From an uncultured Methanomassiliicoccaceae archaeon (lineage in GTDB: Archaea; Thermoplasmatota; Thermoplasmata; Methanomassiliicoccales; JACIVX01), in assembly GCA_964544915.1 (NCBI GenBank), contig CAZJDY010000020.1:69532-133531 (forward strand): DNA of 64,000 bases. The letters run 5' to 3'. The translations under genes and the position numbers were made by a program. Position 1 is the first letter of the stretch. Each line of letters opens with the position of its first letter. The notes beneath the pieces were generated by a model. It did not search any database and was not told the DNA's origin. It saw only the letters and a program-made list of their open reading frames with translations. Of this stretch, positions 28,936-49,682 are shown piece after piece.

Positions 28936-29028
28936 TCAATTGGCGGTCTTTGTTTAAAAACCTGCGGTCTGCCCTTTTCAATTCGGGTTGGCAAAGAGGT
29001 TAAGACGTCGTTCTTCTATCTAGCGACA

Positions 29029-34830: not shown

Positions 34831-36123
34831 CTAGTAGAGTCCGTGGGAGCGACGTCGTATCTCAAGGTGCGCCAAGGAGAGGATGCAGATACCGGCGCTA
34901 CCAACAAGCAAATCGATGGCGATCTGCAGCGGAGTGGCGTTCCATACTTCGATGAGGGCGATTTCTAGTACCGTGAAGAAGGCCAGAATGACAATTAGAG
35001 CGTGGGAGTCAGTGGCTAGCCCATAGTTCATGAACAGGCTAGCCAGGCCGAACATGGTCATGGCCACACCTAGCACGGCAAGGGAAGGGGCGGCTTCGAT
35101 GTAAGCTGCTCCGTAGAGCAGGTTGATGATGAAGCCTGGGATGAGGATGTAAGCAAGAGCCACAATGCCAGAGATGACGAGGGTCCAAATGATGGATTTG
35201 CGCATCAGGGAGTAGGTGTCACGGCCTCGGGCATGTGCGTCCGATATCTTGGGGAACATCACCGCTCCGATGGCCGTTGGCAAGAACAAAATGATCTTGC
35301 CCAGCATAGAGGCGGCCGAATAGATGCCAGCATCCAGGTCGGTGAGAAAGTGCCGTGCCAGGAAAGTATCGATATTGGTCAAGATAGTGAAACAGAGAAC
35401 CGCAGCCGTCACGGGCACTAGAAAGCGTTTCAGTTCTTTGGTGTCGAAACGGCGCCGCTCCCCGTGTAGGATATCTCGGATGGATAGATATGCTATGACC
35501 AGGGCCATGCCGCTGCCCACCACAACGCCTCCGAAGGCACCCGCCACGCCGTAGCCCAAAGCTACGAACAGCACGCCGAAGATGAGCTTGCCCAGCGGCC
35601 CTATAGTATTGGAAACACCCACCATCAGGAAGCGCTGCAACCCCTGCGCTGTGCCAATGCCTATGGGAAATACCATTGAGACGAAGAGGCCGGCGATGAG
35701 GATGATTAGGGCAGAGTCGGAACTGAGATTGAGGAAGGACATCAGGAATGGTATGGCCAGGAAGATGCCCGCTGCCATGACGAGGGCCATTATAACCATG
35801 GAGAATGTGGTGGTGCGGACTAGCCAGGACACTTCGGGGTCCTTTCCTTCCGCGCGCAGCTTGGAGACGTAGCGAACCAGCATCGTGCTCACTGTCTGGG
35901 TAGGGATGGAGACGATGAGGAAGATTGAAAGGATGGCTGTCAGCTCAGAGTATGAGGAAGCGCCCAGGTTCCGTCCCATGAAGATCTGGTAAAGATAGTT
36001 GCATCCGCCCCCGATAACCGTGGCTACGAAAAGCAGGAAAGCCGGTTTGGCGAAGCTGTCCGGGTTTTGGGCGGTGTCGCTCACCGAACCGCCAACATCA
36101 ACGGCAGTATAATAGTTTGCCAT
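34831..36123 (-). CDS. Wzx/MOP-superfamily oligosaccharide flippase
   Basis: 430 aa with about 12 TM segments. N-terminal pattern ..GGGCNYLYQIFMGRNLG..YSEL is typical of polysaccharide-biosynthesis flippases. Confidence 0.75.
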   Translation of the reverse strand: MANYYTAVDVGGSVSDTAQNPDSFAKPAFLLFVATVIGGGCNYLYQIFMGRNLGASSYSELTAILSIFLIVSIPTQTVSTMLVRYVSKLRAEGKDPEVSWLVRTTTFSMVIMALVMAAGIFLAIPFLMSFLNLSSDSALIILIAGLFVSMVFPIGIGTAQGLQRFLMVGVSNTIGPLGKLIFGVLFVALGYGVAGAFGGVVVGSGMALVIAYLSIRDILHGERRRFDTKELKRFLVPVTAAVLCFTILTNIDTFLARHFLTDLDAGIYSAASMLGKIILFLPTAIGAVMFPKISDAHARGRDTYSLMRKSIIWTLVISGIVALAYILIPGFIINLLYGAAYIEAAPSLAVLGVAMTMFGLASLFMNYGLATDSHALIVILAFFTVLEIALIEVWNATPLQIAIDLLVGSAGICILSLAHLEIRRRSHGLY

Positions 36124-36273
36124 TTGTTGTCAAGAAGAAAGGCCTTTGCTAGCCCGAAATGGGAGTGCACGAAGTGTTAATAGGGTCGATTTCCATGCTT
36201 CTTGGAGTCTGTCGGGGGACGGGACGATGAGGATATGCATTGAGGGATAGATTTTGCAGGAGAAGGGAAGAAA

Positions 36274-38676
36274 GTGAAAGGTTTAGATCTCCTACAACTC
36301 TTGTGCCACAGTAAACCGGCCCGCTTCATAAGGGGCAACTTCACAAAGTTTGAGCTTTTGGAGATTGTGTTCATCGTGGCCCTGGGGTTTGTGGCTTTTT
36401 CCTGGGTTGCATCCAACCTCATCGTTGACGGTTTCGATTACGGTTTTTCCTTTTCACCCGACCGTACTCTTCAAAGGGCTTTGCATCTGTGGGATCAGTA
36501 TGGTGGTCTAGGCATGGTGAGCCCTCGTGCCATAGCTGGCACTCTGCCTAACAACCTCTACTATTCTTTCACGCAGGCTCTCGGAGTTGGGCTCCACGCC
36601 GCCCAAACGCTGATTTTCTTCACCATACTCGTGGGTTCGGGCGTCTCCATCTTCCTATTCTATCGCGCACTGGGGCTGGGAGAGAGGTATCGACACGGCG
36701 CGGTGTTTTGCGCCCTTCTGTATATGTTCTCGCCCATATCCTCGACGTTCTTATGGAACCAGTTCGCCTCTAGCTACTATTCATACTGCTTCATTCCGTT
36801 CATAGGAGCTGCGGTCGCCTACGGCATCCGTACTCGCAGGGGTCTCCTCTTCATTCTGTTGGTGGCGTTGACATGGACGGTACTGATCACCTCCTCTTAC
36901 ATGAATCCCGTCAATGCCCTGATGGATTGGCTGCTAATCGGCTCACTCTTGTTGGTTCTGGCGTGGCGGTACAGGAGTAGGGCGAGAGAAGTCGTGAAGT
37001 TCGCTGTCCTACTCGCCGCTTTCTGGCTCCTATTGAATCTAGTGTGGGTGTTGCCCAACGCAGATTACGCGGCCCAAGAGTTCACCAAGGCCGATGTGAG
37101 CGTCATCGGCGTTTCCAACTTGGTCCTGCTCAAGTCCAATTCTGTGCCAATTTGGCAGGCAGCGCTACAGACCGGCTACTGGGGGTTGTATGGAACATAC
37201 ATGGGCGATCACTGGTATTCTTGGTCAGGGTTGGCATCGTCGCCTATCTTCTTCATCGCCTGTCTAATTATCGCTCTAACTGGCCTAGTTGCATTGACGA
37301 TTCGACCAATGAAGGATGCAATCGTCTGGCTGGGTGGGCTGGCTTTGTTTTGTTTAATCATGATCAACGGTTATTATCAGCCGTTCGGCGATGCCCTGGT
37401 GTCGCTCTTCAATCAATTCCCTCAACTCTACGCATTCCGAAGTCTCTTCCAGCGCTTTGGCCCGCTTCTCACCCTCTGCTACTCCCTGTTGCTAGGATAC
37501 GTGATGGGCCATCTAGTCGGCAGATGTGATTTGAGTAAAATAAGATCGAGAGGCTGGAAAGGCGTTCCCATGCGGGGATGGTTGACGATGATATGGATAT
37601 CGCTTGTGTTGATATCCATTTCGGTGGTGGCAGTACCGTACTTCAACGGTCAGATTATCTACGACGGAGGGAAGGTCATCCCCTCGGCTAGGGTTCAAGT
37701 GCCTTCATACTACGCAGAAACGAATAAGTGGCTCAACGCCCAGGAAGGGGATTTCCGTATATTTCCGTTGCCCTACTGTAGAATTGGCTACGCCTCCTTC
37801 AGCTGGAACCATGGCTACTGGGGACTGGATCCGAGCTCATCTATCTTTGACAAGGTGCTCCTTACATCTGAGTATGGTCTTGTCGGCGATTTGCTTGCCG
37901 ACATTGCCGGTCGGATTGCCAACTCCAGTCTTGATTTCAATCTCGGGAAGATGTTGTCGATCCTCAACGTGCGTTATGTCCTTTTGCACGAAGACACGAA
38001 TTGGCAGTTCATTTATGGTCATCCCTGGTGGGTAGCTTCCAAAACCAATTTTACCCAATATCAGGCAGCGATTGAGGCTGGTGGTTTGAAGCCGATCGTC
38101 TCTTACGGCAAGCTGCATCTCTTCGAGAACCCATTCTGGCATGACGTACACTACTACCAGGTGGATACTGTTGTTGCTGTGATAGGTGGATTGCGAGCGG
38201 TGAAGAACCTGACGACCGAACCATGGTTTGATATTTCCCATATGGCATTTGTTGAGGTCGACAGCCTGGCGCAAGTAGGCAGTCTGCCTTTCACCGTGGA
38301 TCGAGTATACGAAAACTATCATCTCCTTGATGAGCCGATACTGGGCGGGTTTGATAACAACAATACCGTCCAGACAGTTGGAAGGGATCTCCCAACTCGA
38401 CATGAACTGCAAATCGATCCTCATCGTCATTTGCTGGTCTTCTCCGAACGCTTCGACAACGGATGGAACATGGTGCAAGGTGGAATCGTGAATGCTCATT
38501 TTGCTGTAAACATGCTATTCAACGGGTGGATGGTGCGTAATGATTCCACCAGCCTGGTTCTTTTGGAGTTCCAGCCTCAGAAAGGCGTGGAGTATTGCAC
38601 AGCATTCTCGATAGGATTCTTGTTACTGGCAACTACCGCCCCCATCCTCTGGGGCAGGTCTAATCGGCGCCCCTAG
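36274..38676 (+). CDS. AftD-like GT-C membrane glycosyltransferase (DUF3367 family), 800 aa
   Basis: The first extracytoplasmic loop DGFDYGFSFSPDRTLQRALHLWDQYGGLGMV matches my recollection of the AftD/DUF3367 signature (..D.....DP..fL.Ra.hlWd...g.G.v). More than 12 TM segments are followed by a C-terminal soluble part of about 300 aa and a terminal TM. GTG start. Confidence 0.6.
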   Translation: MKGLDLLQLLCHSKPARFIRGNFTKFELLEIVFIVALGFVAFSWVASNLIVDGFDYGFSFSPDRTLQRALHLWDQYGGLGMVSPRAIAGTLPNNLYYSFTQALGVGLHAAQTLIFFTILVGSGVSIFLFYRALGLGERYRHGAVFCALLYMFSPISSTFLWNQFASSYYSYCFIPFIGAAVAYGIRTRRGLLFILLVALTWTVLITSSYMNPVNALMDWLLIGSLLLVLAWRYRSRAREVVKFAVLLAAFWLLLNLVWVLPNADYAAQEFTKADVSVIGVSNLVLLKSNSVPIWQAALQTGYWGLYGTYMGDHWYSWSGLASSPIFFIACLIIALTGLVALTIRPMKDAIVWLGGLALFCLIMINGYYQPFGDALVSLFNQFPQLYAFRSLFQRFGPLLTLCYSLLLGYVMGHLVGRCDLSKIRSRGWKGVPMRGWLTMIWISLVLISISVVAVPYFNGQIIYDGGKVIPSARVQVPSYYAETNKWLNAQEGDFRIFPLPYCRIGYASFSWNHGYWGLDPSSSIFDKVLLTSEYGLVGDLLADIAGRIANSSLDFNLGKMLSILNVRYVLLHEDTNWQFIYGHPWWVASKTNFTQYQAAIEAGGLKPIVSYGKLHLFENPFWHDVHYYQVDTVVAVIGGLRAVKNLTTEPWFDISHMAFVEVDSLAQVGSLPFTVDRVYENYHLLDEPILGGFDNNNTVQTVGRDLPTRHELQIDPHRHLLVFSERFDNGWNMVQGGIVNAHFAVNMLFNGWMVRNDSTSLVLLEFQPQKGVEYCTAFSIGFLLLATTAPILWGRSNRRP

Positions 38677-39452
38677 GATTTGGGTGCCTGGAGTGCTCTG
38701 TCATAGTAATGGATGAGTTTGTCCCTATAGAAGATGCCCAATGTGTCCATGAAGATGTGGTAGACATCATTCACTCTGATCCGGCCTCCATTCTCCCGAA
38801 TGAAAAGGACCTTAATTGGCACTTCCGAGATCGTGAAACCGTCGTGTAGCGCGTTGAGAAGCAGCTCCAGGTCGAAGGCGTAGCGTTTCACCACGACCCT
38901 AGGAAACTCCCTCTCCAGTACTTGGCGTTTGAATAGTTTCAGTCCAGGTTGTGTGTCTGACATCTTGACCTGGAACACTGCCCTAATCATCAAATTGTAA
39001 CCGAGGGAGAGGATTCTTCTCTTGAACGGGTAGTTAACGATAGATTCTGGATGCCTTTTTGAGCCGATAACGATGTCAGCATCAGTTCGTAGCATCTCAA
39101 CCAGGAATCTTTCCAGCTGACGGGGATGGAGTTCTAGGTCCGCATCAATGAAGGCGACAAGGTCGCCGTCGGTTTTCTTCCATCCTTCCCTCAGTGCTTT
39201 CCCCTTTCCGCCATTGTCGCGGTATGTGACAAGGACGATCTCTTTGTAGATTTGCGCGGCCCGAGCAATCTCAACCTCAGTGCCATCGGTACTGCCATCG
39301 TCGACAACGATTATCTCAAAGGGCAAGCCAAATTCTCTAAAAGTTGCGATTGCCTCTTCTAGATTGGAGTATATCCTATTGCTTTCGTTGAATGCGGGGA
39401 TGATGACGGATAGCTTTCCCATTTGTTCGACTCTATTCTCCCTCTCCGTCAT
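38673..39452 (-). CDS. Family-2 glycosyltransferase
   Basis: KLSVIIPAFNESNRI, IVVDDGSTDGT, IDADLE. The start is either ATG 39452 or ATG 39422; the track start 39590 is probably too long. Confidence 0.8.
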   Translation of the reverse strand: MTERENRVEQMGKLSVIIPAFNESNRIYSNLEEAIATFREFGLPFEIIVVDDGSTDGTEVEIARAAQIYKEIVLVTYRDNGGKGKALREGWKKTDGDLVAFIDADLELHPRQLERFLVEMLRTDADIVIGSKRHPESIVNYPFKRRILSLGYNLMIRAVFQVKMSDTQPGLKLFKRQVLEREFPRVVVKRYAFDLELLLNALHDGFTISEVPIKVLFIRENGGRIRVNDVYHIFMDTLGIFYRDKLIHYYDRALQAPKS

Positions 39453-39744
39453 ACGTATCCCACTCACTGTGCGTATCCTAAATTCAGTCTGCGATATAAA
39501 CGTTGTTTTAGGTGACAGGAGGTTCTGTTGGCATTTTGGTATTAGAGCATCGTAGCCTCCCCAGTCAATAACCTCAAAATCTGGGATCATTTCGATGCAG
39601 CATCCTGGCTATGATTATGTCAAGGTTTTGGCCATGTAGCATTGTTCCAAAAGGACACGGAAGTGAGTCTACTCATTCTGCAAGTCTAAGTCAAGATGGG
39701 GCATAATTCCATATATGATGTAGGGCCTAACTGGGCTATTTGAC

Positions 39745-40533
39745 ATGACGTCGATTGAAATAGGAGTCATACCCGCCGCAGGAGAAGGCAGAAGATTCGG
39801 CTATCTCGGAAAAATCCTGCCTAAACCATTGATGCCTGTGTATGACAGACCTATAATCCACCTTGTTGTTGACAATATGAAGAGAATCGGAGTGACGAAG
39901 CTTTTTGTTCCTGTCTACTTTCACAAGGAAAAGATCAAACACTACTTTTCGGAATCCAGAGCTTCCATGGATGTGGAGGTAAATCTGATTGAATTGGACA
40001 AACCAACCTCAGGCATAGCAGAGACAATTAGCACCGCAAGAGATTCGATCAAGGAGCCGTTTGCCGTGATTCTTGGAGACGACTTCACTATGGCTAGATC
40101 TTTTGATAACCTCGTTAGGACCTTCTTCAACCAAGACGCAATTGCTTTGGAAGGCGTGGTTGAAGAAAAGAGTCTGGCGGCACTGAGGTCGACTTGCTGC
40201 GTACGAATGGGAGAAAGAAACAAGATACTGGAAATTGAAGAGAAGCCAAATGACCCGAAATCCTCTCTGAGAGGTTGTGGGATTTACTTGTTCAGACCGG
40301 AGATTTTCGATTACGTCGATAGGACTCCGAGACTTCCTCCCCGAAACGAGGTGGAGATTACGAATACGATAGGTTTGGTCGCTGAAGAAGGGAAGGCATT
40401 TGCAGAACTCATAGATGGAGAAAATGTAAATATCAACAACTACGACGACCTGCTTCTTGCGGCCTTGATATCCTTCAAGAATACCCATTCGCGGGGGAAA
40501 ATGAATGAGCTTCTCGAAAGAACCACTCGTTAG
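39745..40533 (+). CDS. Sugar-1-phosphate nucleotidyltransferase
   Basis: GVIPAAGEGRRFG..KPL signature. 262 aa. Confidence 0.8.
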   Translation: MTSIEIGVIPAAGEGRRFGYLGKILPKPLMPVYDRPIIHLVVDNMKRIGVTKLFVPVYFHKEKIKHYFSESRASMDVEVNLIELDKPTSGIAETISTARDSIKEPFAVILGDDFTMARSFDNLVRTFFNQDAIALEGVVEEKSLAALRSTCCVRMGERNKILEIEEKPNDPKSSLRGCGIYLFRPEIFDYVDRTPRLPPRNEVEITNTIGLVAEEGKAFAELIDGENVNINNYDDLLLAALISFKNTHSRGKMNELLERTTR

Positions 40534-41563
40534 TATAATTCTGTTGAACTACAACGGAGAGAAGTTCGCTAGTCTGTGGGAATCTGTATTCAAATCGGAA
40601 TATGGCAACTTCGAGATTATCTTTGTTGATAACGGGTCGAAAGACGGTAGCCTAAGTCTCTTCTTAAATCTGAAAGACAAGAATCCGGGAGTTAGAGTCG
40701 AAATTGTCAGAATCAAAGAGAACATAGGGTACTCCAGAGCCAACAATCGGGGCCTTGAGTTCACTCACGGAGAGTACGTAGTTCTGCTCAGCAATGACAT
40801 TGAAGTTGAAAAAGACTGGCTCAGAAACATGATTGACTTCATGGGCTCGCACAAGGACGTGGCGGTCGCTCAGAGCATGATGTACTCAATATACAATAGG
40901 ACGGAACCAGACCGCATGGGCAATCATATCGATGTACTGGGGTTCAATCATCCTTTCAAACCTTCTGGGAAGGTGGAGGAAGTATTCTACAGCGAAGGTG
41001 CAGTGATGTTCATTAGGAAATTAGTAATAAATGAAGTGGGCGGTCTATTCGATGAGACCTTCTTCATGTTTTTCGAAGATGTTGATTTTTCATGGCGGGT
41101 GAGGCTGAGAGGATACAGGATTTGTGTAGTGCCTTCTTCAATCGTGTATCACGTTAGGGGCGGCACTGTTACTGGCACTGTTATCAAGATGAATCCGACT
41201 TACATCATGACAAATTCTAGGAATCGTCTCATCACTCTTTTCAAGAATTATGATGCTTACAACATGTTTGTGTATGGATCTCTCAGCCTTCTTTCCGAGA
41301 TTGGCGAGTCATTATGGTTAATGGTAAACAATCAAGGAGCACTGGGGCTAGCCTGCCTCAAAGGGGTCCTGGCATTCATAAGAATGACACCGCATCTCCT
41401 CAAGAAAAGAATGTACGTCCAGTCTCTTAGGAAAATTGGTGACGACAGGATTTTGGCTCTTGTGTTTCCCATCGGAGTAGCGGTTAGTAGTCTGATTCGA
41501 ACGAGTCAAGATGCGAAAAGGGAGTTTCAGGAATCTTGTGGCCATATAGGACAGTCGGGATAG
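40505..41563 (+). CDS. Family-2 glycosyltransferase
   Basis: VSIILLNYNG, IFVDNGSKDGS, LLSNDIEV, and FFEDVDFSWR, a typical GT2 (rhamnosyltransferase-like) layout. Confidence 0.85.
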   Translation: MSFSKEPLVSIILLNYNGEKFASLWESVFKSEYGNFEIIFVDNGSKDGSLSLFLNLKDKNPGVRVEIVRIKENIGYSRANNRGLEFTHGEYVVLLSNDIEVEKDWLRNMIDFMGSHKDVAVAQSMMYSIYNRTEPDRMGNHIDVLGFNHPFKPSGKVEEVFYSEGAVMFIRKLVINEVGGLFDETFFMFFEDVDFSWRVRLRGYRICVVPSSIVYHVRGGTVTGTVIKMNPTYIMTNSRNRLITLFKNYDAYNMFVYGSLSLLSEIGESLWLMVNNQGALGLACLKGVLAFIRMTPHLLKKRMYVQSLRKIGDDRILALVFPIGVAVSSLIRTSQDAKREFQESCGHIGQSG

Positions 41564-41604
41564 ATGTTGGTTTGATTGGAATTGTTAGTTTGAGGGATTG
41601 AAGA

Positions 41605-44600
41605 ATGAGGAAGAAGATCATCTGGTATCATCTCCTGGCTCTGATTATCGGTATTATAATTGCCATGGTCTGCATAAGACATCTGATAGCCGAAGACCCC
41701 TCTTTGATTGTGAGCTACCGTGATATCTCCGTCCCTCCAAGAACAGGCATGCTTGCTGATTATTACTTCTTTGCATGGTCCGATCAAGGATCACATCCTA
41801 ACTATGAAACACTTGCCAGGAGCTGGTACAGTTTTCCCATGATCTTCAATGATATCACTTTGTTCTCTAAGATCGACTTCCTTTTCTTGTATACGATTAT
41901 GTTCTTCGTCCCCTATCTGGCGTTTTTCAGTATCTTTCACAAGTACCTCAAGTATGACTGGAAAGTCTCATTCTTATCATCAATAGTTGCTGCAGTCCTC
42001 TACTCACTAAACCCATATTCTGTCATGATATTCTCCCCTCCTTACACATACGTGATATCTTACTCTTTTTTTCCTGCGTTGGTGTACGCATACTTGATGG
42101 TGCTGGAGAAGAACACCCATTTGTCGAGACTTGCGCTAGCCCTGATAATCACATTGGTTGTTACCCCGATTTTGCGGGCCGTTGTGTTCGTTGTAGCGAT
42201 CATGCTTCTGACTTCCCTTTCTGTTCTTTTCATCAAGGGTATTTCGCGAAGATCACTTCGGAACATGGGGCTGAATCTCTGCATTGTCCTCGTTATGGTT
42301 GTTGGTATCAATGCATATTGGCTGTTGCCAGCCATTTCAGCGAGTTTTTCAGCCCCCATACAACCATCTTACACTCTAACATATGAAATGACTCATTTGT
42401 TCTCGACCAGGTATTCATTTGATGATATCCTTTTGCTCAGAGCTTCTTGGTGGCCATATTTGCAGCTAAAGCCGATTATCCCAGTGGAAATCTGGCTGCT
42501 CCTGCTCCTCGTGATCCCGCTCCTTTCACTTTCCTCCTTAATGTTGTGGTACTCGAGGGGCAGAGACGAGAAGCTTCTGCTGTTAACTGGAGTGGGTGTA
42601 TGTCTTGTTGGTTTTTCTTTGTGGAGCGGTCTGAATAACCCAATATCTTCGTTCTCCAAGTTGTATGAGTTGCTACTATTCTCCACCCCATCCTCGATAG
42701 GTTGGATGTTCCGGGTGCCCGAGTATTTCGGTGCGTTAGTCGCCTTTTCATCAACACTTCTAGCTGGCTTAGTCATAGCAAGAATCGGAGATAAATGTCA
42801 GAAATTCAACTCGGGGAATCGATTTTTCACGCCAAAGAGGTTATTCGTTGGACTCTTGGTTCTTCTTTTGGTTTCATCTGGATTGATTGGCTGGCAAAGA
42901 CTGAGTGGAGATCTAGATGGAAATCTTAGGAGCGGGTACCACCTAGCCGAAAGGTCACAATTTGACGTCTCGTCTTTCCAGAGGCCTCTGGTTCTCTTGT
43001 GGAACTATACGGGAGACTTTCAGCCGAATCTTATTGGAAAACCATTCGTTGACCCGCCTAAGGATGTTGCAAAATACCTTGTTCAGACGCTCAGAAATGG
43101 TGATAACAAAGCGCTTGATCTCGTTTGTACGATTATGGGAACAGATTCACTGATAACCAATCTGGAGATTACGAACACAACGCTCGTTTCAATTTGCTAT
43201 CTATCCAATTATGATATCTGGGTCTATCTCTTGAACCCCAGTAATGGAGCATTTCAGATCCGAAGCAACCTAGCATCAGTGCATGAATTTGATAGTGAGT
43301 TGTACGGTTTCATATCAACAATGAATTCCTCTCTTGCTTTGGGAACAGAGTCCGAATTGAAATATTCACACCTAGTTATTAATCCCAATCCAATTTCATT
43401 CATGTCGTCATCTGCCAAGGCTACAACCATTGACCCGTTTCTGTACACAATTCATCATGATCCGTCAAGACTTTGGTCAAGGGCATCGACCGCTGATCCT
43501 CTGCATGGAGAATGGCACGCGTATATAGATCAGTTCAATCTTAGGAACTGGCAGACCGATAATGGTAGAGGCCTAGTCTTTACTTGGGCGAATCCTCAAG
43601 TTCCGACAGATACAATTCCGAGCAACAATTTCTTAATTGAAGGGTGGGACTTCAATAACGACACCGACCTTAAAGCTTGGCAGGAATCGACTCCGAATGA
43701 GCAATTCGGCGCGATTCAAGAACTAACACGGGACCAAGACTCGCTCAGAGTCTCACTATTCAATTCTACATGGGGCTGGAAGACCATAAACTCGCCATCT
43801 ATCTCTGCCCATGTTGGTATCCCTTACAGATTCTCCCTAAATACTAGAGGGACGAATGCCCACTCTGTATATGTAAAAGTAGCTGAGCTCGATGCTGACA
43901 TGAATGAGATTCGAAACGATTCCGTAGGGCTCATTGGGAACGGTACCTTTGGATGGAAGGTCTTCACTGTTGATTTTACACCAAGAAACCCATCTACTGC
44001 TTTTATCAGGTTAGAGTTTTGGCATGGTAACATAGCAGAGGCGATTCCAAATCGAGTTTGGATTGACGACGTGAGGGTTTGGAACATTAGCAGTTATACT
44101 ATACCAGCCGCAATGAGCATGAACTTCGAAGTTGACAGTTCAACGGACTACAGACTATTCTCAAGGTCCTTCATAAACCCTGAGGGTGGAGTTGTCGAGA
44201 TTCAAATCGACAACAGGTCGGTGTCTCTATTCACAAGGGATCAACTCAGCAGATTCGTTTGGCGGGACCTTGGTATCCTTAATCTTTCAGAAGGCAGACA
44301 CACGATTGCACTCCGAAACCTCTATGGCTTGAATGCAGTCAATCAAATTGTAGTCATCCCTGTAGCTGAGTACAGAAAGGAACTTGATAGATATATATCA
44401 GGATTGAAGAACAAAACGCTTCTTTACGTTTTTGAAGGAGAGTCGGAGTTCAATTGGATAAATGGCAGGGTCATTGGCAGTGGCAATCAGCAAGCTAGTA
44501 ATGGCATGGTTCTTCAATTTGATAGCAATGGAAGAGCATGGCAAGAAGTCGATGTCCTCCGAAATGGCACGTACGAGATCTTGCTGAGAGGATCTGGCAA

Positions 44601-45144
44601 TATGACAATCATGATTGATGAGAGAGAATACGAAATGCATATTTCCGGATATGAGAAGAATGCCTCCGTGCCAATCGAACTCGAAGCTGGGCAGCATAGA
44701 ATAGAGATAGTGGCGCAAGGTGCAGAAGAGAAGTCTCGGTACATTGATTTTCTCTGCTTGTATTCTGTGGACGGAGGCAGCAGACTGGATGACATCTTGG
44801 CTCCGAGCAATTCCCCTGCTGAGATCGCTGGGGTCAGAAAGATAAACCCCACTGAGTATTTGGTACATGTATCTGCTCACTCCCAGTACCTATTGCTGTT
44901 TTCAGAGTCCTATGATCCTCTGTGGGTTGCACAAATCAAGAAAGATGGACACACTTACCAATATAAGCCGAATCAAATCGACAGATTGTCCTCAGGATTT
45001 TACATCAATATCACAGGAGAGTACGATATCTCGGTCAGATATCTGCCCCAGACGTGGTTCGAATCGGGAATCATTGTCACGTTGGCGGTCATTCTCGGGT
45101 GCCTGACTTATGCATATATCTCAAGGATGCGGAATAGGAAATAG
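41605..45144 (+). CDS. Giant (1179 aa) AftD-like GT-C membrane glycosyltransferase with a CBM-like jelly-roll domain and a C-terminal TM anchor
   Basis: The N-terminal 460 aa or so hold at least 11 hydrophobic helices. The centre has a CBM4/9-like segment IEGWDFNNDTDLKAW...WGWKTI...YRFSLNTRG...VKV...FGWKVFTVDFTP...IRLEFWHG...VWIDDVRVWN. The last 25 aa (GIIVTLAVILGCLTYAYI) are hydrophobic. GAGGGA lies 10 nt before the ATG. Confidence 0.6.
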   Translation: MRKKIIWYHLLALIIGIIIAMVCIRHLIAEDPSLIVSYRDISVPPRTGMLADYYFFAWSDQGSHPNYETLARSWYSFPMIFNDITLFSKIDFLFLYTIMFFVPYLAFFSIFHKYLKYDWKVSFLSSIVAAVLYSLNPYSVMIFSPPYTYVISYSFFPALVYAYLMVLEKNTHLSRLALALIITLVVTPILRAVVFVVAIMLLTSLSVLFIKGISRRSLRNMGLNLCIVLVMVVGINAYWLLPAISASFSAPIQPSYTLTYEMTHLFSTRYSFDDILLLRASWWPYLQLKPIIPVEIWLLLLLVIPLLSLSSLMLWYSRGRDEKLLLLTGVGVCLVGFSLWSGLNNPISSFSKLYELLLFSTPSSIGWMFRVPEYFGALVAFSSTLLAGLVIARIGDKCQKFNSGNRFFTPKRLFVGLLVLLLVSSGLIGWQRLSGDLDGNLRSGYHLAERSQFDVSSFQRPLVLLWNYTGDFQPNLIGKPFVDPPKDVAKYLVQTLRNGDNKALDLVCTIMGTDSLITNLEITNTTLVSICYLSNYDIWVYLLNPSNGAFQIRSNLASVHEFDSELYGFISTMNSSLALGTESELKYSHLVINPNPISFMSSSAKATTIDPFLYTIHHDPSRLWSRASTADPLHGEWHAYIDQFNLRNWQTDNGRGLVFTWANPQVPTDTIPSNNFLIEGWDFNNDTDLKAWQESTPNEQFGAIQELTRDQDSLRVSLFNSTWGWKTINSPSISAHVGIPYRFSLNTRGTNAHSVYVKVAELDADMNEIRNDSVGLIGNGTFGWKVFTVDFTPRNPSTAFIRLEFWHGNIAEAIPNRVWIDDVRVWNISSYTIPAAMSMNFEVDSSTDYRLFSRSFINPEGGVVEIQIDNRSVSLFTRDQLSRFVWRDLGILNLSEGRHTIALRNLYGLNAVNQIVVIPVAEYRKELDRYISGLKNKTLLYVFEGESEFNWINGRVIGSGNQQASNGMVLQFDSNGRAWQEVDVLRNGTYEILLRGSGNMTIMIDEREYEMHISGYEKNASVPIELEAGQHRIEIVAQGAEEKSRYIDFLCLYSVDGGSRLDDILAPSNSPAEIAGVRKINPTEYLVHVSAHSQYLLLFSESYDPLWVAQIKKDGHTYQYKPNQIDRLSSGFYINITGEYDISVRYLPQTWFESGIIVTLAVILGCLTYAYISRMRNRK

Positions 45145-45619
45145 ATGGACATCCATCTGACAAAATGGACTCACTAATCTGAGGTCATAGAGATGGGGGA
45201 AACTGGCGGCGCTGGTGGTATCGTCTGGAACTTCTGTTTACCGTGTAGATGGCGTTGATTGAAGTTGACAAGTCTTACGTTCAACTTCTGAAATTCTGTC
45301 TATATATATCAGTCAAATTCTAGTCACTAACGAGTCGACGGCTTGGCTGCATCTTTGACAATCCTTTGAGAAATCATTCTCAAGAGATCGATTTGGAATA
45401 TCTTGCGAAGACATGGTTCATGAAGGTCTTATACAGGCCATTCGCATGGAATGTCGTATATTGATTTGTCAACTATCCTAGATCGTGGAGCAATAAGAAT
45501 GATCCGTTCCAGATGAACCATAGGGAGGCCTCGATTACTCAGTCTTTTCTTTTGCTGGATTCATAAGACCGTCATGGACTATTAGATGGCCCGTCCGGCT
45601 CGAATGAATCCACAAGGAT

Positions 45620-46438
45620 TCACACTGACCTGCCAGCTATGTACCCAACAAAACCGGCACCAAATTCAAATGTTTTCATGAATAGCATCCCACACGCAAT
45701 AATGGGATTCCTTGTCAATCTTCTCCAGTTCTTTATGAATGCTGGCCTTATCGGTGTCAATTGTCTACTGGCCATTTCGGGATGCTTTCTCAAGTAATTG
45801 CTAATCGTCTGAGCATAGTAGAATTTCTTTCTCAGAGACATCAATAGACTAAGATTGCCTTCATGATGGATTATTAGACCACTTGTTCTTGATATCTTGT
45901 AGCCATTCTTCCTTATTCTCAGAGCCAAATCCCAGTCTTCACCGCCGCCAGCGATACTCTCGTCATATCCCCCAGAATTGAAGAAAACCTGTTTGTCAAA
46001 TAGTCTTGCAGCTTCTATCGTCTCATCTCCAAGGTAGCATTCTTTTTCTAGCGCTTTGCATCTAGCCCAGAATCCTTCACCCTGAGAGATTTCTGGAATA
46101 ACAATAGCTTGAGATTGCTCCTGCACGATCTTGCTGACACACTCTTCAATAACGTTCTCTGTCAGTTCCATGTCAGAATCTATGAACATGAGGTAACTAC
46201 CACTTGATTTCTGCGCCCCATAGTTCCTCTGGGAACTCCTTTCTGGACCTTTTGAAAAGAACATAATTTTGTGTTTGTCTGCTATGATTCTTGTATTGTC
46301 TGTTGAGAAGTTGTCAATTACAAGGATTTCGATATTCTTGTAGGTCTGGTTTCTTATGGACTGTAGACACACATCCAGTGTTCTATCAGAGTCTCTTGTT
46401 GGCACTATGACCGACACAGGAATTCCGCGTTCCGTCAC
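45620..46438 (-). CDS. Family-2 glycosyltransferase
   Basis: VSVIVPTRDSDRTL, VIDNFSTDNT, IDSDMEL, GGEDWD. The GTG start overlaps the GT4 stop (GTGA). Confidence 0.85.
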   Translation of the reverse strand: MTERGIPVSVIVPTRDSDRTLDVCLQSIRNQTYKNIEILVIDNFSTDNTRIIADKHKIMFFSKGPERSSQRNYGAQKSSGSYLMFIDSDMELTENVIEECVSKIVQEQSQAIVIPEISQGEGFWARCKALEKECYLGDETIEAARLFDKQVFFNSGGYDESIAGGGEDWDLALRIRKNGYKISRTSGLIIHHEGNLSLLMSLRKKFYYAQTISNYLRKHPEMASRQLTPIRPAFIKNWRRLTRNPIIACGMLFMKTFEFGAGFVGYIAGRSV

Positions 46439-47511
46439 CTCTCACACCTTCTCAAGAGGGTCAATAGATACTCTGCCGACCTATCCCAATTGTATTGTCT
46501 GGAGTCTTTAAGAGCTTCTTCGGAATAGTAATCGAGCTTCTTGTTGTTGAATAGGGACAGTATTCCACGAGCCATTGCATTTGGATTCGGCTCACACAAA
46601 ACACCTGTGCGTCCATTCTTGATTGAATCTCTTAATCCCGGAACATCATATCCGAGGGCTGGTGTTCCAACAGCATTTGCCTCGGTGACAACCAATCCCC
46701 ACCCTTCTCTGACAGCAGGGACAAGAATGAGGTGACTCATTGAAACAAGTTCAATTCTTCGTTGTCTCGGCAGATGGCCGAAAAAGGTGGAATTTTCATC
46801 ACTCATTTTCTCAATTTGCCTTCTCATGTATCCGTCACCGATCATCCAAATTTGGAGGTCCTTGATTTCATTCCTAGCAATTCTGTATGCCTTGAAAGCA
46901 TGGTCAGGGAGTTTTGCTCTCTTGAATCTGCCCACAAAAATTAGAGTAGGCTTTTCCTCTTTGATTGGGACGGATTGAAAGGGTTCAAAATCGACGCCCT
47001 CAGGTATTATCATGATTTCCTTGAATCCCAGTTTCCCCAGATCATCTGCGGTCGAGTTAGATACGGTAAGTGTTGGTACATTCTTGTACTGACTCAGCCA
47101 ATGATTCTCAAGCCAGTAATATCCAACCCAGTTTAATGGCCATCTGGTTTCATAGAACCAGAACTCTCTAGCTAACTGATGGATTAGGGCGAACAAACAC
47201 TCGCCTTTATTCACAAATCTAGGTGTCATAAATGGCCGAGTGTTGATTTCATCAATTACCACATCGTATCGAGTTCTAGTGTCTTCATAGAATTGTCTCG
47301 CCTTTCGATATACAGAGTATTTCCCACCGACTCGGAATATCTCTACGCCATCTATGTTCTCGTTCCTAGGTCCTCCTTCAAAACCTGCGGTAACTAATGT
47401 GACGTCCATTCCTTTGGTTGAGAGCCGCCTCATGATTTCGTGAGTGAATACTTCCGCACCCCCGGCTTCGGGATTCTTGATGTCACGCCAGTTGAGAACG
47501 AGGATTCTTAT
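46435..47511 (-). CDS. GT4 (GT-B fold, family-1-type) glycosyltransferase; only a non-canonical ATA is available at the homologous start (see findings)
   Basis: C-terminal EGWGLVVTEANAVGTPAL motif. The typical GT4 N-terminus (M)RILVLNWRDIKNPEAGGAEVF is encoded in frame upstream of the first ATG (47433) and begins with ATA 47511..47509, directly after an in-frame TAG. Confidence 0.75.
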   Translation of the reverse strand: MRILVLNWRDIKNPEAGGAEVFTHEIMRRLSTKGMDVTLVTAGFEGGPRNENIDGVEIFRVGGKYSVYRKARQFYEDTRTRYDVVIDEINTRPFMTPRFVNKGECLFALIHQLAREFWFYETRWPLNWVGYYWLENHWLSQYKNVPTLTVSNSTADDLGKLGFKEIMIIPEGVDFEPFQSVPIKEEKPTLIFVGRFKRAKLPDHAFKAYRIARNEIKDLQIWMIGDGYMRRQIEKMSDENSTFFGHLPRQRRIELVSMSHLILVPAVREGWGLVVTEANAVGTPALGYDVPGLRDSIKNGRTGVLCEPNPNAMARGILSLFNNKKLDYYSEEALKDSRQYNWDRSAEYLLTLLRRCER

Positions 47512-48035
47512 GAGCTATCCCTTCCAATCGAGTACACTTGCCGTAATTAGCAATCTGCTTAAAGTCCTTTTCATGGCTGACTAGAGCAGCATGCTCTGAT
47601 ACCAATCCCAGTATCTCTTGAATATGCGTCGAACTGACAGGACAATCAATCCTATTCGAAATCTAATGGATGGTGTTTGGCGGTGCAAATACCGAAGCAC
47701 GTCCATAGAATCCGAAACTCCTATACACCAGTCCTGAGACGTAGTGACGTCTAGGGATCACAGTACAAACTCGTCCCTCGTTCGGATACGGTTCAACGGA
47801 AAAGGAGAATAGGTATTGTTCTTACAGGAAGACTCTATTCACAGGAATATTCTCCAAATTTCACCAGATTGGCAAGGATAGTGACCGTGAGTACAATCTC
47901 CAGTTCGCCTCTCGAAGCGAGGCTCTCGGCGGAAACACTATTACTGCGGAGCATTTAGATACGCCTTTCGTCAATCAAGTTCCATCCGCGCCTGAGGAGA
48001 CGCATGATAGTCTCCCTGGAGGGGGAGAGTGAGAC

Positions 48036-48293
48036 GTGGAACCGTATGACATCGCCGGAATACTGATCATTGTACCCTTCCTTTTTTTCAGGATCGTCTA
48101 CAAGGTCGACTCTAGGATCATCATAGGCATAGCCCTCGTGCTTCTCGTCGCAACAGGTGTTTCGCTCGCCGCAGGCAGCGAATCTATCGCGAACGACCTT
48201 GCGATTGTCGCCTACTATTGTATCGTCGTAGGAGTTCTACTGCTTGCCATCGAGTACGCATTGAACGAAAGAAGAAAGGCGAGAGGAAGTTAG
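48036..48293 (+). CDS. Small membrane protein (2-3 TM)
   Basis: 85 aa. GTG start preceded by GGAGGGGGAG 9 nt upstream. Hydrophobic throughout. Confidence 0.45.
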   Translation: MEPYDIAGILIIVPFLFFRIVYKVDSRIIIGIALVLLVATGVSLAAGSESIANDLAIVAYYCIVVGVLLLAIEYALNERRKARGS

Positions 48294-48450
48294 GCGGTGG
48301 AGCGGCCGCTTCTCAGGGGACATCTTCAAGAAGATGGATGGCGAAAATCCCGGGGATCTGATCCAGCTACTCGGACCGTATTCTCCCTATGTGTTCTTTC
48401 TTCTGCTCGCACTTCTGGCTCGTGACCCACTATCGGCTCCGTGTTAAGTA

Positions 48451-48723
48451 TTGAGCCCAACTATGATTTTCACGCCAGGGATGTCCTCGACGCCTTTCAG
48501 GGACTTCCGAGAATCGGTCGGTGTGTCGAAGTCAACGCTGTCCTATGATCTCAAGAAGCTGACAGGAGCTGGCATCGTCCGGGTGGAGAGGTCCGAGAGG
48601 GAGATGGTCTACCGCGTCAACAATCCGAACGAGGTCGCGGACAGCCTGGTCGCGCTACAAGAGAGCTTAGAAAGCGATGCGGTGGATGGATTCGTCGACA
48701 TCTGGAGGAAGTTCAGCAGATGA
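48451..48723 (+). CDS. wHTH (ArsR-like) regulator, possibly the 3' part of a gene interrupted by an in-frame TAA
   Basis: FRDFRESVGVSKSTLSYDLKKLTGAGIVRVERSEREMVYRV is HTH plus wing. An upstream ORF in the same frame (ATG 48334) ends at TAA 48445-48447. Confidence 0.45.
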   Translation: MSPTMIFTPGMSSTPFRDFRESVGVSKSTLSYDLKKLTGAGIVRVERSEREMVYRVNNPNEVADSLVALQESLESDAVDGFVDIWRKFSR

Positions 48724-48812
48724 GAAACGTCTCCTCCAGACTGTCCACGAAAACAACTATTATAATATGGGATTGCGATTATCTGAAAAGGGATTGTTTC
48801 CCGAGGGGAGGA

Positions 48813-49616: not shown

Positions 49617-49682
49617 GGTCCGTAGGCGACAAACTCCTTCCTTTTCATTATTTAGAGAGGCGCGGGACGAGGATACGATCGC

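Follow-up and report, generated by a model that had tools for sequence, protein, structure and literature searches.

A probable replacement-type glycan island in a peat/wetland Methanomassiliicoccales archaeon

The window analysed here is a 64,000-nt stretch from a peat/wetland Methanomassiliicoccales MAG, a methanogenic archaeon. Its segment 28,961-~48,745 is, with a probability of roughly 85%, a flexible genomic island of the replacement type, devoted to surface glycosylation. The slot is a fixed chromosomal site, with an ACT-domain gene on one side and an amino-acid ABC-transporter operon on the other, and its content is always a surface-glycan assembly cluster that differs from strain to strain. 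The literature defines replacement flexible genomic islands by such a pattern and counts an archaeal case among them (PMC4033161; PMC4535781; bioRxiv 10.1101/2024.04.23.590705). The kind of island is already known, and the present locus is one further archaeal case, a clear but ordinary parallel to the switching of O-antigens or capsules in bacteria. The sequences used for comparison all come from metagenome or MAG contigs, with no isolate genomes among them.

Organization of the Island

The features of the locus are as follows (strand after the coordinates; a point marks features without strand).

28534..28935, -, ACT-domain gene, last conserved gene of the left flank; 98.5% amino acid identical in allele-B contigs
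28936..29028,., intergenic region with a sharp left breakpoint at ~28,960-28,965, a hotspot boundary common to contigs (alignment A2)
29029..29952, +, GT2 glycosyltransferase, 307 aa (Pfam Glycos_transf_2)
29936..31408, +, 12-TM GT-C-like membrane protein, 490 aa, PIG-U/PIG-M-like (weak Pfam matches)
31405..32424, +, 339-aa protein with an N-terminal anchor and one TM segment, always adjoining the 490-aa GT-C
32438..33319, -, GT2 glycosyltransferase, 293 aa (Pfam)
33376..34485, -, polyprenyl-phosphate-sugar-synthase-like GT2, 369 aa (Pfam GT2; three C-terminal TM-like segments)
34486..34830,., non-coding gap, 336 nt, with a possible UDP-glucose dehydrogenase relic inside
34831..36123, -, Wzx/AglR-like flippase, 430 aa, native GC (Pfam Polysacc_synt, 71.5 bits)
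36124..36273,., Wzx/AftD divergent intergenic region with an internal recombination junction at ~36,210
36274..38676, +, AftD-like GT-C glycosyltransferase, 800 aa, intermediate GC (Pfam GT-C_AftD, 65.9 bits, cut-off 26)
38673..39590, -, GT2, 305 aa (Pfam), in a conserved triad with Wzx and AftD
39745..40533, +, sugar-1-phosphate nucleotidyltransferase, 262 aa (Pfam NTP_transferase), where the AT-rich block begins
40505..41563, +, GT2, 352 aa (Pfam)
41605..45144, +, giant AftD-like GT-C, 1179 aa (profile and fold similarity to AftD)
45145..45619,., non-coding gap, 475 nt, between convergent genes (gap survey)
45620..46438, -, GT2, 272 aa (Pfam; GC3 0.44)
46435..47512, -, GT4 glycosyltransferase with lost start codon (Pfam Glycos_transf_1 and Glyco_transf_4)
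47513..48035,., non-coding stretch, 523 nt, between the island body and the conserved right-end genes
48036..48293, +, 85-aa membrane protein, 3 TM segments, with a diverged copy in both island versions (alignment A1)
48294..48723, +, decayed winged-helix (wHTH) regulator, of which only the C-terminal wHTH (ORF 48464-48723) remains
48724..48745,., right boundary, where near-100% identity with allele-B strains is back (alignment A1, columns 900-981)
48720..49616, +, amino-acid ABC-transporter substrate-binding protein (Pfam SBP_bac_3), first conserved gene of the right flank

In the left module, the 307-aa GT2, whose start is taken from gene calls on contig L008, shares 51% amino acid identity with the collinear gene of the distant MAG L022. 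The 490-aa protein displays 12 TM-like segments and weak Pfam matches to PIG-U, PIG-M, GT87 and PMT_2, and shares 42% identity with the PIG-U-like gene in L033. Its 339-aa neighbor has no match in Pfam or NCBIfam and has syntenic homologues in L022 (37%) and L033 (34%). The 293-aa GT2 occurs as deeply diverged alleles in other island versions (56-68% amino acid identity; L005, L024, L022, L030), and the 369-aa GT2 is 67-69% identical to its allele B and C copies, with NCBIfam matches to AglJ, ArnC and dolichyl-phosphate hexose transferase that all fall below cut-offs. In allele B, the homologous GT2 is preceded by a UDP-glucose dehydrogenase, with whose C-terminus 12/33 residues of 34653-34751 (minus strand) match, weakly suggesting a possible relic of that enzyme. 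The flippase is 46-48% identical to alleles B and C, 72% to L035 and 67-73% to L033.

In the right module, the 800-aa AftD-like protein (791 aa in the NCBI call) contains 12 TM-like segments, and its closest homologues are 55-57% identical. The copies of the 305-aa GT2 in L033 (66% identity) and L035 (57%) occupy the same relative position. The 262-aa nucleotidyltransferase has a best homologue of 57% and matches NCBIfam AglF, RmlA and GlmU-type models, all below cut-offs; the adjoining 352-aa GT2 is 57% identical to the neighbor of the nucleotidyltransferase gene in L033. The 1179-aa protein has no Pfam or NCBIfam match. Its layout comprises a ~10-TM N-terminal domain, a soluble domain, several β-sandwich/CBM-like domains and a C-terminal TM anchor, and some of its 1485 representative homologues carry CBM_4_9, CBM35 or CBM6 matches. 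Alignment to the 800-aa protein by hhalign (probability 98.9%, E 3e-17) and an AlphaFold model (pLDDT 87), for which the top Foldseek hits are AftD 6WBY/6W98 at E 1e-17 and the next at 1e-8, identify it as AftD-like at the level of profile and predicted fold. Pfam, hhalign and fold comparison thereby confirm the gene content given in the first-pass annotation for the AT-rich block (two AftD-like GT-C, three GT2, one GT4 and one nucleotidyltransferase), and that of the adjoining Wzx-like flippase and 29-34.5 kb cluster (GT2, GT-C and polyprenol-P-sugar-synthase-like genes) holds as well.

Replacement between Strains and Island Boundaries

A 249,820-bp metagenome contig (L005 and L003) is 98.7% identical to the window over 17,630-28,960 and 48,486-59,616, and ~99.5-99.8% identical in the flanks away from the junctions. 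Between these flanks, ~42.7 kb of other glycan genes replace the 19.8 kb of the window (the middle ~23 kb of this allele-B island being unseen). The window's version, allele A, is found on contigs L008, L010-L012, L014, L015 and L017, allele B on L005-L007, L009 and L013, and a third, mosaic allele on L024 and L025; several samples hold two or more alleles. An empty site was never seen in other strains, in which another glycan cluster fills the slot. The earlier proposal of a horizontally exchanged, hypervariable locus of the O-antigen or capsule type is therefore upheld, since near-identical strains hold entirely different gene sets. The alleles are old, because the genes that they share are only 46-69% identical in amino acids, compared with 96-99% for flank proteins. 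No two divergent clonal frames with an identical island, which would mark a recent swap, were found.

On the left, blastn homology to the window stops at 28,960-28,971 in L005, L006, L007, L009, L013, L019, L020, L021, L024, L027 and L028, and this boundary is common to species with flanks that are 63-86% identical. On the right, the alignment starts at 48,486, within the diverged wHTH gene. Synonymous divergence is highest next to the island junctions (dN/dS 0.09-0.33): dS is raised to 0.077 in the ACT-domain gene, against a background of 0.008-0.03, and reaches 0.13 in the 3′ half of the ABC substrate-binding protein gene (96.5% amino acid identity in L003). The divergence peak of the left flank at 24.5-26.5 kb may be an unrelated recombination tract, as a near-identical gene lies between it and the junction and its dN/dS of 0.33 is fairly high.

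The AT-rich block had been placed at 36,150-48,035 and viewed as a graft onto a native-GC cluster at 29.0-34.5 kb with its flippase. This stable platform does not exist in the closest strain, where the GT2 and flippase genes of the 29-36 kb cluster are replaced by copies 46-67% identical; instead of 29-34.5 kb being conserved and 36-48 kb replaced, both are replaced. The left breakpoint of that strain lies at 28,960, so that the replaced unit takes in the native-GC cluster and the replaceable unit is therefore 28,961-~48,745. The earlier left edge at 36.15 kb nevertheless matches a real additional exchange point inside the island at ~36,210, in the interval that separates the flippase gene from the first AftD-like one: contig L036 is 98-99% identical to the window over 33,707-~36,210, and beyond it mismatches rise to 24-25%. 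The start of the AftD gene has a GC3 of 0.67 in the L036 variant, compared with 0.58 in the window, which hints at a right half of native GC at the same position in a sister strain.

Composition and Alternative Explanations

The island is a compositional mosaic, with a host-like left half (29-36.2 kb) and a diverged, low-GC right half (36.2-48 kb). Outside 28-49 kb, the GC of 1-kb windows has a mean of 0.562 (sd 0.025, minimum 0.522). It is 0.525-0.558 at 29-36 kb, 0.494-0.524 at 36-39 kb and 0.426-0.459 at 39-48 kb (z -4.2 to -5.5), and the host level is regained at 48.0-48.5 kb. The AT-rich stretch proper, ~39.3-48.0 kb with 43-46% GC, lies in the right half of the ~20-kb island. Per-gene GC3 is 0.69-0.84 in the core and 0.67-0.72 at 29-36 kb, passes through 0.61 in the 800-aa AftD-like gene and 0.57 in GT2_c, and is 0.44-0.52 from the nucleotidyltransferase through the GT4 gene; GC1 and GC2 shift far less. 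Tetranucleotide distance to the background rises from ~1.3-2.7 generally to 3.8-4.4 at 40-47 kb. None of these computed profiles is flat, and the AT-rich block reported earlier is real.

Composition, as the only basis, points to an outside low-GC donor for the AT-rich half. Whether this half is a recent, one-off gain from such a donor (a bacterium or another archaeal order) beside a resident, vertically inherited glycosylation cluster is a separate matter, and we regard it as unlikely. The GC3 contrast, a tetranucleotide distance ~2.5 times background, the junction at ~36,210, the collinearity of the left module at native GC in the distant L022, and bacterial MAGs among the few named homologues of the nucleotidyltransferase (44-48%) would all fit. 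However, the supposed resident cluster is itself exchanged in the closest strain, and the GC drop is a gradient inside the intact 800-aa ORF, not a step. Insertion scars, att sites and mobility genes are absent. A recent donor is not in evidence, because the best homologues of the AT-rich genes, in other Methanomassiliicoccales or an Asgard MAG, are only 39-66% identical (nearest protein matches 55-57%). Two other Methanomassiliicoccales genomes, L033 (core 0.57-0.61, island 0.35-0.42 GC) and L035 (core ~0.57, island 0.41-0.50), carry the Wzx-AftD-GT2 triad in islands of low GC, and one of them shares further island genes. In L033, homologues from both halves of the window's island are co-located in one island, AT-rich from ~5 kb onward, which suggests that both halves belong to one pathway and are not two unrelated pieces.

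In three different host genomes the cassette family is richer in AT than the core, which could also mean that low GC is intrinsic to the gene class, through weak expression of membrane and glycan genes, relaxed codon selection or AT-biased mutation, and no sign of foreign origin. O-antigen-type loci are classically low in GC across many taxa, and the confinement of most of the shift to GC3 agrees with such an origin. This explanation is nonetheless improbable, given that equivalent glycan genes at 29-36 kb, 5-10 kb away, have a host-like GC of 0.55-0.58, as is also true of parts of the island in alleles B and C and in other species. The window's Wzx gene has a GC3 of 0.70, whereas its 67-73% identical L033 homologue lies in DNA of 0.42 GC, and the AftD start of L036 likewise departs from that of the window.

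An assembly or binning artefact, a chimera that joins DNA of two organisms, deserves mention, as the window comes from a 276-kb metagenome-assembled contig and related MAG contigs frequently break at the island locus. It is very improbable: at 95-99.9% identity, independent contigs from other samples cross the two outer junctions and the greater part of the left half (L008, 25,289-33,068; L017, 28,826-35,424; L036, 33,707-36,571; L018, 38,093-41,124; L001, 47,363-50,224), a coverage that excludes 36,571-38,093 and 41,124-47,363. GC also declines within one uninterrupted ORF, that of the 800-aa protein, which overlaps the next gene by 4 nt, and the Wzx-AftD-GT2 order is kept in L033 and L035. 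Atypical composition and strain-specific presence are features of integrated mobile elements too (provirus, integrative plasmid or transposon with glycan-modifying genes), an origin that is scarcely credible here. Pfam domain searches of the island ORFs reveal no integrase or transposase, these ORFs include no replication or structural genes, and flanking direct repeats are absent, the only repeats being short and at chance level, in agreement with the first-pass annotation. The nearest tRNA genes are 26 kb from the island, phage and plasmid collections contain no DNA match to it, and other strains hold a glycan cluster in place of an empty site.

Proposed Exchange Mechanism and Pathway

Under the replacement reading, homologous recombination, acting in the conserved flanks or in shared genes inside the island, would exchange whole or half cassettes. 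Frequency-dependent selection by viruses or grazers might keep the diversity, an idea already put forward for O-antigen, capsule and archaeal cell-surface islands.

From domain content alone, we infer the glycan, the acceptor that carries it and each of the enzymatic steps. The sugar-1-phosphate nucleotidyltransferase would supply an activated sugar, and the soluble GT2 and GT4 enzymes would assemble, on the cytoplasmic side of the membrane, a polyprenyl (dolichyl)-linked oligosaccharide, which the Wzx/AglR-like flippase would then export. The membrane-anchored GT2 would generate polyprenyl-phosphate sugars. Three GT-C enzymes may then draw on these outside the membrane to lengthen the glycan or add branches to it, with a glycoprotein or lipoglycan as its carrier: the 490-aa PIG-U/PIG-M-like protein, the 800-aa AftD-like protein and the 1179-aa AftD-like protein, which has CBM-like domains. 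Within the island, nothing was recognised as an oligosaccharyltransferase (AglB), an initiating phosphoglycosyltransferase or a Wzy-type polymerase.

Decay at the Right End

The right end of the island is decaying, with a lost GT4 start codon, a truncated regulator and the longest non-coding gaps. The three longest gaps of the whole window measure 336, 475 and 602 nt (median gap 15) and are exactly those singled out before (34495-34830, 45145-45619, 47512-48035); the 475-nt gap has no similarity to any fetched sequence. The two genes described as damaged-looking, the GT4 and a wHTH with an in-frame TAA, are indeed so. In the GT4 gene, ATA takes the place of the expected ATG at 47510-47512, the first ATG coming only at 47433. 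Upstream of it, after a TAG, 26 in-frame N-terminal codons include the Gly-rich motif NPEAGGAE; this N-terminus, LIRILVLNWRDIKNPEAGGAEVFTHEI, is the same in the independent contig L001. In the wHTH gene, a TAA occupies 48445-48447, and 48 nt are deleted in comparison with allele B (alignment A1, translations). The remnant of this gene is the C-terminal 86-90 aa of a protein that in allele B has 174 aa and two wHTH domains, and it matches Pfam HTH_20, HTH_5 and MarR, all below cut-offs. The preceding 85-aa membrane protein has a counterpart of 87 aa in L003 and L004.

Replacement of the Island between Near-Identical Strains

The window contains a typical replacement-type surface-glycosylation island. 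Two parts (L005 and L003) of one 249,820-bp JGI contig are 98.7% identical to the window over 17,630-28,960 and 48,486-59,616, with 0-3 mismatches per 500 bp away from the junctions (99.5-99.8% identity), and between these matching flanks lie ~42.7 kb in that contig vs. 19.8 kb in the window. On the left, identity breaks off sharply at 28,960-28,965, between genes and directly upstream of the ACT-domain gene. At the right end, each version has its own diverged copy of an 85-aa membrane protein and of a wHTH gene, and near-100% identity is regained only past the wHTH stop codon, at ~48,745. The exchangeable unit thus extends from 28,961 to ~48,745, and takes in the "native-GC" cluster at 29-36 kb together with the flippase. 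The first-pass annotation had placed an exchanged glycan cassette at 36,150-48,035, grafted onto a native-GC cluster at 29.0-34.5 kb. It was right about the kind of event, as the replacement is seen, but not about its extent; the expectation that 29-34.5 kb would be conserved and 36-48 kb replaced failed, since the 29-36 kb cluster is also replaced in L005/L003. The main features of the island are:

28,961 to ~48,745, exchangeable unit, between the ACT-domain gene and an amino-acid ABC-transporter operon
32438-33319 (-), GT2_b, a GT2 enzyme
34831-36123 (-), Wzx flippase
36274-38676 (+), 800-aa AftD-like GT-C protein
38673-39590 (-), GT2_c, a GT2 enzyme
41605-45144 (+), 1179-aa AftD-like GT-C protein

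The window's version (allele A) is found on several short contigs from other samples, which are 95-99.9% identical to the window and too short to show whether the genomic backgrounds differ. The version of the JGI contig (allele B) also occurs on several contigs, and a third, mosaic version (allele C) on two (L024, L025). The parts of allele B that were read encode a GT4, a GT2, a GHMP kinase, a SIS/HAD protein, a further GT2, a flippase, another GT2 and a UDP-glucose dehydrogenase, and also a nucleotidyltransferase, epimerases/dehydratases, a DegT aminotransferase, a TPP enzyme, two polysaccharide deacetylases and a MAST protein. Genes common to the versions share 56-68% (GT2_b), 67-69% (the polyprenyl-P-sugar-synthase-like GT2) and 46-48% (flippase) amino acid identity, whereas flank proteins are 96-99% identical, meaning that the alleles are old and have been reassorted among nearly clonal backgrounds.

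The left boundary is common to other species. In all related contigs homology to the window ends at 28,960-28,971, and the right flank restarts from 48,486 to ~48,745. Contigs with 74-85% identical flanks follow allele B collinearly through the breakpoint, and the 29-34.4 kb module of the window has a collinear counterpart in a much more distant MAG (L022), whose EamA protein is 54% identical. Peat (SPRUCE) and wetland (OWC) samples are the source of the related MAGs, and the 90% clusters of proteins from the window's flanks have members named "Methanomassiliicoccales archaeon". MAG and metagenome contigs of related species (L019, L020, L021, L022, L025 and several JGI contigs) tend to end no more than a few kb from the island's left boundary, a usual assembly symptom of a hypervariable region.

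Border Divergence and Internal Mosaic

In the one strain pair compared, dS is raised in the bordering genes (ACT 0.077; 3' half of the substrate-binding protein, SBP, 0.13) over a background of 0.008-0.03, and their dN/dS is 0.09-0.22. A second divergence peak is located at 24,500-26,500, in the ARMT1-like and MR_MLE genes, which accumulate 11-26 mismatches per 500 bp against the 98.7%-identical strain (MR_MLE: dS 0.105, dN/dS 0.33). The GMPP gene between this peak and the island junction is almost identical in the two strains (0.4% divergence), and the peak may be a separate recombination tract.

Two gene models at the right flank differ in length among relatives. The SBP has 298 aa in the window and in a further matching contig (L001), and 266-267 aa in most cluster members; its N-terminal 31 codons (48720-48812; L003 10001) overlap the zone where the island versions diverge, so that the true start is uncertain. 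The ABC ATPase ORF (50180-51073) has 297 aa in the window, where it overlaps the permease gene by ~170 nt, and 171 aa in relatives (L003 11746-12261), a difference due either to start-site ambiguity or to a frameshift in one sequence.

The left edge of 36,150 drawn by the first-pass annotation turned out to be a real exchange point inside the larger unit. A 2,869-bp contig from another sample (L036) spans window 33,707-36,571. As far as ~36,210, in the flippase/AftD intergenic region, it has 0-16 and mostly 0-7 mismatches per 250 bp, and there identity breaks. Beyond this point 24-25% of positions are mismatched over the initial 300 nt of the AftD-like gene, with a GC3 at the gene start of 0.67 in L036 vs. 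0.58 in the window.

Composition of the Island

The compositional anomaly is real and strong. Outside 28-49 kb the GC content of 1-kb windows is 0.562 +/- 0.025 (minimum 0.522), and falls to 0.426-0.459 in nine consecutive windows at 39-48 kb (z -4.2 to -5.5). Values are intermediate at 36-39 kb (0.494-0.524) and host-like at 29-36 kb (0.525-0.558). The signal is carried by third codon positions: GC3 is 0.69-0.84 in the flanking housekeeping genes and 0.67-0.72 in the genes at 29-36 kb, and then falls rightward through the 800-aa GT-C (0.61) and the next GT2 (0.57), reaching 0.44-0.52 in the stretch that begins with the nucleotidyltransferase gene and ends with the GT4 gene. Measured against the rest of the window, tetranucleotide distance climbs from ~1.3-2.7 to 3.8-4.4. 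The AT-rich block, originally proposed from hand-counted lines, is therefore borne out by all three profiles, none of which is flat. The left-side island sequence of alleles B and C, and that of other species, has host-like GC (0.55-0.58); the right side of allele B has 0.51.

Gene Content, Gaps and Damaged Genes

Pfam searches agree with the gene inventory read from the sequence, the single exception being the 1179-aa protein, which has no Pfam hit. The flippase matches Polysacc_synt (71.5 bits, cut-off 28.2) and has ~13 TM-like segments. Matches to NCBIfam Agl models lie far under the equivalog cut-offs (AglJ 53 vs. 325 bits; AglF 111 vs. 400 bits). None of the island ORFs is hit by Wzy_C/O-antigen ligase, Wzz, Bac_transf or MraY-like Glycos_transf_4, nor, in a search confined to the island, by the STT3 model of the AglB/STT3 oligosaccharyltransferase, and no decaprenyl-phospho-arabinose (DPA) pathway genes were noticed in it. 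AglB might be encoded at another place in the genome. A mannose-1-phosphate guanylyltransferase-like gene (26457-27566, +) and an EamA transporter are located in the conserved flank directly left of the island, and may supply a common precursor to whichever cassette fills the slot.

No other non-coding gap in the window is as long as the three that had been singled out as unusual (336, 475 and 602 nt, where the median intergenic distance is 15 nt). Searched with tblastx and blastn, they gave no match apart from a weak relic of a UDP-glucose dehydrogenase C-terminus (12/33 aa) in the 34,486-34,830 gap. The relic occupies the place that this gene has beside the homologous GT2 in allele B, which hints at an older rearrangement at this point. 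A sigma-70 promoter and terminator scan of 45.1-48.1 kb stayed at shuffle level, with a model that is not applicable to archaea.

Both genes suspected of damage are indeed damaged. In the GT4 gene, 26 in-frame N-terminal codons, including the Gly-rich NPEAGGAE, sit 5' of the first ATG; they come after a TAG, and ATA is found at the expected start codon. The sequence with ATA is the same in an independent contig. The wHTH gene encodes a double-wHTH protein of 174 aa in a relative, of which the window's copy, with a TAA at 48445-48447 and a 48-nt deletion, retains just 86-90 aa at the C-terminus.

AftD-Like GT-C Proteins

The description of two AftD-like GT-C giants proved correct, by Pfam for the 800-aa protein and by hhalign and Foldseek for the 1179-aa protein. 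The former is a member of PF11847, GT-C_AftD (65.9 bits, cut-off 26). The latter has neither a Pfam nor an NCBIfam hit, and by sequence model lies outside PF11847. A 30-sequence profile of its family nevertheless matches the 800-aa protein with 98.9% probability (E 3e-17, hhalign). Its AlphaFold model (pLDDT 87, pTM 0.81) has mycobacterial AftD as its best three PDB matches in Foldseek (E 1e-17 to 1e-15, TM-score ~0.4), and the next match reaches only E 1e-8. Some family members have CBM_4_9, CBM35 or CBM6 hits. On the predicted structure, the 1179-aa protein is a GT-C fold protein with extracytoplasmic CBM-type domains, as in solved AftD. A word-indexed search, which returned 2 distant hits, made it look like an orphan, but this was ruled out by an exhaustive HMMER scan, with 1485 cluster representatives at E<=1e-3 and 284 at E<=1e-30. 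Its nearest named relative is from a Njordarchaeales (Candidatus) MAG (40% identity).

Mycobacterial AftD is a GT-C arabinofuranosyltransferase with three CBMs (PDB 6W98, 6WBX, 6WBY; bioRxiv 10.1101/2019.12.22.885152). It is structurally the best match of the 1179-aa protein, and the 800-aa protein is hit by its Pfam family; in the shared arrangement, a large extracytoplasmic domain containing CBM-type beta-sandwiches comes after the GT-C membrane domain. By contrast, sequence identity between AftD and the window proteins is ~10%, and the latter have 11-12 TM-like segments and a single C-terminal anchor instead of 16 TM helices with an ACP-binding bundle. The two proteins are uncharacterized, one of them from a large family without a Pfam model, and are candidates for extracytoplasmic glycan synthesis in wall-less archaea.

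Related Cassettes and the Origin of the AT-Rich Half

The cassette recurs inside the Methanomassiliicoccales. Two contigs (L033/L034), placed in this order because the 90% cluster of their SufBD protein has a member so named, carry a PIG-U-like GT-C, a 337-aa protein, a GT2, an NTP-transferase, a GT2, a 1033-aa protein, a GT2, an AftD-like protein, a GT4 and Wzx, which are 34-73% identical to the window's proteins (GT4 excepted, at 24%). The GC content of this island is 0.35-0.42 and that of the adjoining core 0.57-0.61. The complete 2.55-Mb genome GCA_942492955.1 (L035) carries the triad Wzx (72%)-AftD (57%)-GT2 (57%) in an island of 0.41-0.50 GC, vs. ~0.57 in the core. Both cassettes lie in islands 10-20 GC points under their cores, and their genomic locations differ: beside Suf genes in L033 (ENA contig_3300, 50 kb; cassette at 5,000-20,771) and beside an rml-type dTDP-sugar gene set in L035 (6,000-22,421). 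Low GC is a recurrent property of the Wzx-AftD-GT2 cassette family. One island elsewhere thus contains homologs of genes from the left as well as the right half of the window's island, an arrangement suggestive of one pathway.

Mechanism and Alternative Explanations

Comparison of the contigs shows that the island is replaced as a whole or by halves at fixed junctions, in the absence of mobility genes. Exchange would proceed by double crossover, either within the conserved flanks or within internal genes that the versions share, and the diversity might be kept by virus- or predator-driven frequency-dependent selection. In the proposed pathway a nucleotide-sugar would be made, and GT2 and GT4 enzymes would assemble a polyprenyl-linked oligosaccharide on the cytoplasmic side, to be exported by Wzx. 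A GT2 with three C-terminal TM segments would make a polyprenyl-phosphate sugar, and three GT-C enzymes would lengthen the glycan outside the membrane, the largest of them having CBM-like beta-sandwich domains, as AftD does.

That the contig joins unrelated DNA as an assembly chimera is unlikely, as independent contigs are available for 25.3-36.6, 38.1-41.1 and 47.4-50.2 kb, the fall in GC passes through one intact ORF, and other genomes keep the gene order. An integrated mobile element or provirus is also unlikely, since the site is never empty in the strains compared and mobility genes, repeats and phage or plasmid matches are lacking. The early remark that no integrase, transposase or flanking direct repeats are visible holds for the Pfam search of the island ORFs and for the repeat search, which over 28.0-49.5 kb gave only 16-27-nt matches at chance level and no att-like flanking repeats; blastn of 39.4-47.4 kb against phage and plasmid collections gave no match.

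Two other explanations concern the low GC itself. An intrinsic effect of the gene class is contradicted by equivalent genes, both nearby and in the other alleles, that have host-like GC. A one-off graft of the right half from an outside donor is possible, but no close donor was found in its support: the donor search for the AT-rich half gave nothing closer than 57% (nucleotidyltransferase) and 57% (800-aa AftD-like protein).

Comparison with Known Systems

Replacement flexible genomic islands (fGIs) for surface glycosylation include the O-chain and flagellar-glycosylation islands of aquatic bacteria (PMC4033161, Lopez-Perez et al., 2014; PMC4535781, Martin-Cuadrado et al., 2015) and, among archaea, the cell-wall island GI1 of Haloquadratum walsbyi (PMC4033161; PMC4535781). 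The window island shares with them the same locus in all strains, conserved syntenic flanks, and gene sets that in >98% identical strains are different or barely alike but equivalent in function. The SNP peaks in bordering genes are also shared, are mostly synonymous, and exchange is ascribed to homologous recombination, mobility genes being unneeded. However, the present host is a wall-less Thermoplasmatota methanogen of peat or wetland, and its island lacks an S-layer or surface glycoprotein gene and is dominated by three GT-C enzymes (two AftD-like). One half lies 12 GC points lower, in contrast to the H. walsbyi island, which groups with its own genome by composition. Glycosylation fGIs of the marine ammonia-oxidizing archaea Nitrosopelagicus brevis and Nitrosopumilus catalinensis (bioRxiv 10.1101/2024.04.23.590705) are likewise large, highly variable and GT-rich, but belong to another phylum, measure 50-90 kb, and were defined by metagenomic under-recruitment and long reads rather than by contig comparison.

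Bacterial Wzx/Wzy O-antigen and capsule loci are likewise low-GC cassettes between conserved genes that hold a Wzx-family flippase along with nucleotide-sugar genes and several GTs, and they undergo whole-cassette replacement with mosaic hybrids (serotype switching). By contrast, no Wzy polymerase, chain-length regulator, ligase or initiating phosphoglycosyltransferase was recognized in the window island, where GT-C enzymes appear to take the place of the Wzy machinery for extracytoplasmic steps. The archaeal N-glycosylation (agl) clusters of Haloferax and Methanococcus and the three-component glycosylation systems (polyprenyl-P GT2/flippase/GT-C; PMC11127046) resemble the island in a dolichyl-phosphate-hexose-synthase-like GT2, an AglR/Wzx-like flippase, soluble GTs, a sugar nucleotidyltransferase and GT-C enzymes acting outside the membrane. 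The island differs from these systems in that it has no AglB and that no GtrA-type small flippase was seen.

Significance for the Methanomassiliicoccales

The island reveals neither a new kind of genetic element nor a new mechanism. No earlier description of such an island in the Methanomassiliicoccales was found; the literature found on the order mentions only islands of atypical G+C. The main weight of the finding lies in the clean population evidence and in the AftD-like GT-Cs of wall-less methanogens. Near-clonal strains differ by a swappable surface-glycan cassette, so that peat and wetland Methanomassiliicoccales share the population-level "glycotype" diversity of marine bacteria, haloarchaea and ammonia-oxidizing archaea. 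The island is a marker of co-existing lineages, and its hypervariability between strains explains why MAG contigs break at this locus. It also suggests selection by viruses or grazers in a group that is relevant to methane and has a poorly known envelope.

Electron micrographs of Methanomassiliicoccales show no prominent cell-wall-like structure (PMC4153887). A tentative reading, to which we would give only about three chances in ten, is that these archaea carry a strain-specific lipoglycan or glycocalyx built outside the membrane by giant CBM-bearing AftD-like GT-Cs, whose genes form an order-wide pool of low-GC Wzx-AftD-GT2 cassettes recombining as half-islands at a fixed hotspot. If so, this would be an archaeal analog of mycobacterial arabinan/LAM assembly, and the 1179-aa protein would stand for a large uncurated archaeal GT-C family (>1,400 cluster representatives) without a Pfam model.

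Elsewhere in the window, Rfam and ARAGORN found only two tRNA genes, the nearest at least ~26 kb from the island. They are located at 1211-1298 (-) and 2801-2896 (-), both with Rfam tRNA scores of 58-61 bits. One is tRNA-Asn (GTT), and the other has the anticodon CAT, its type being left unassigned by ARAGORN. Their lengths of 87-96 nt imply introns, which fits an archaeal genome.
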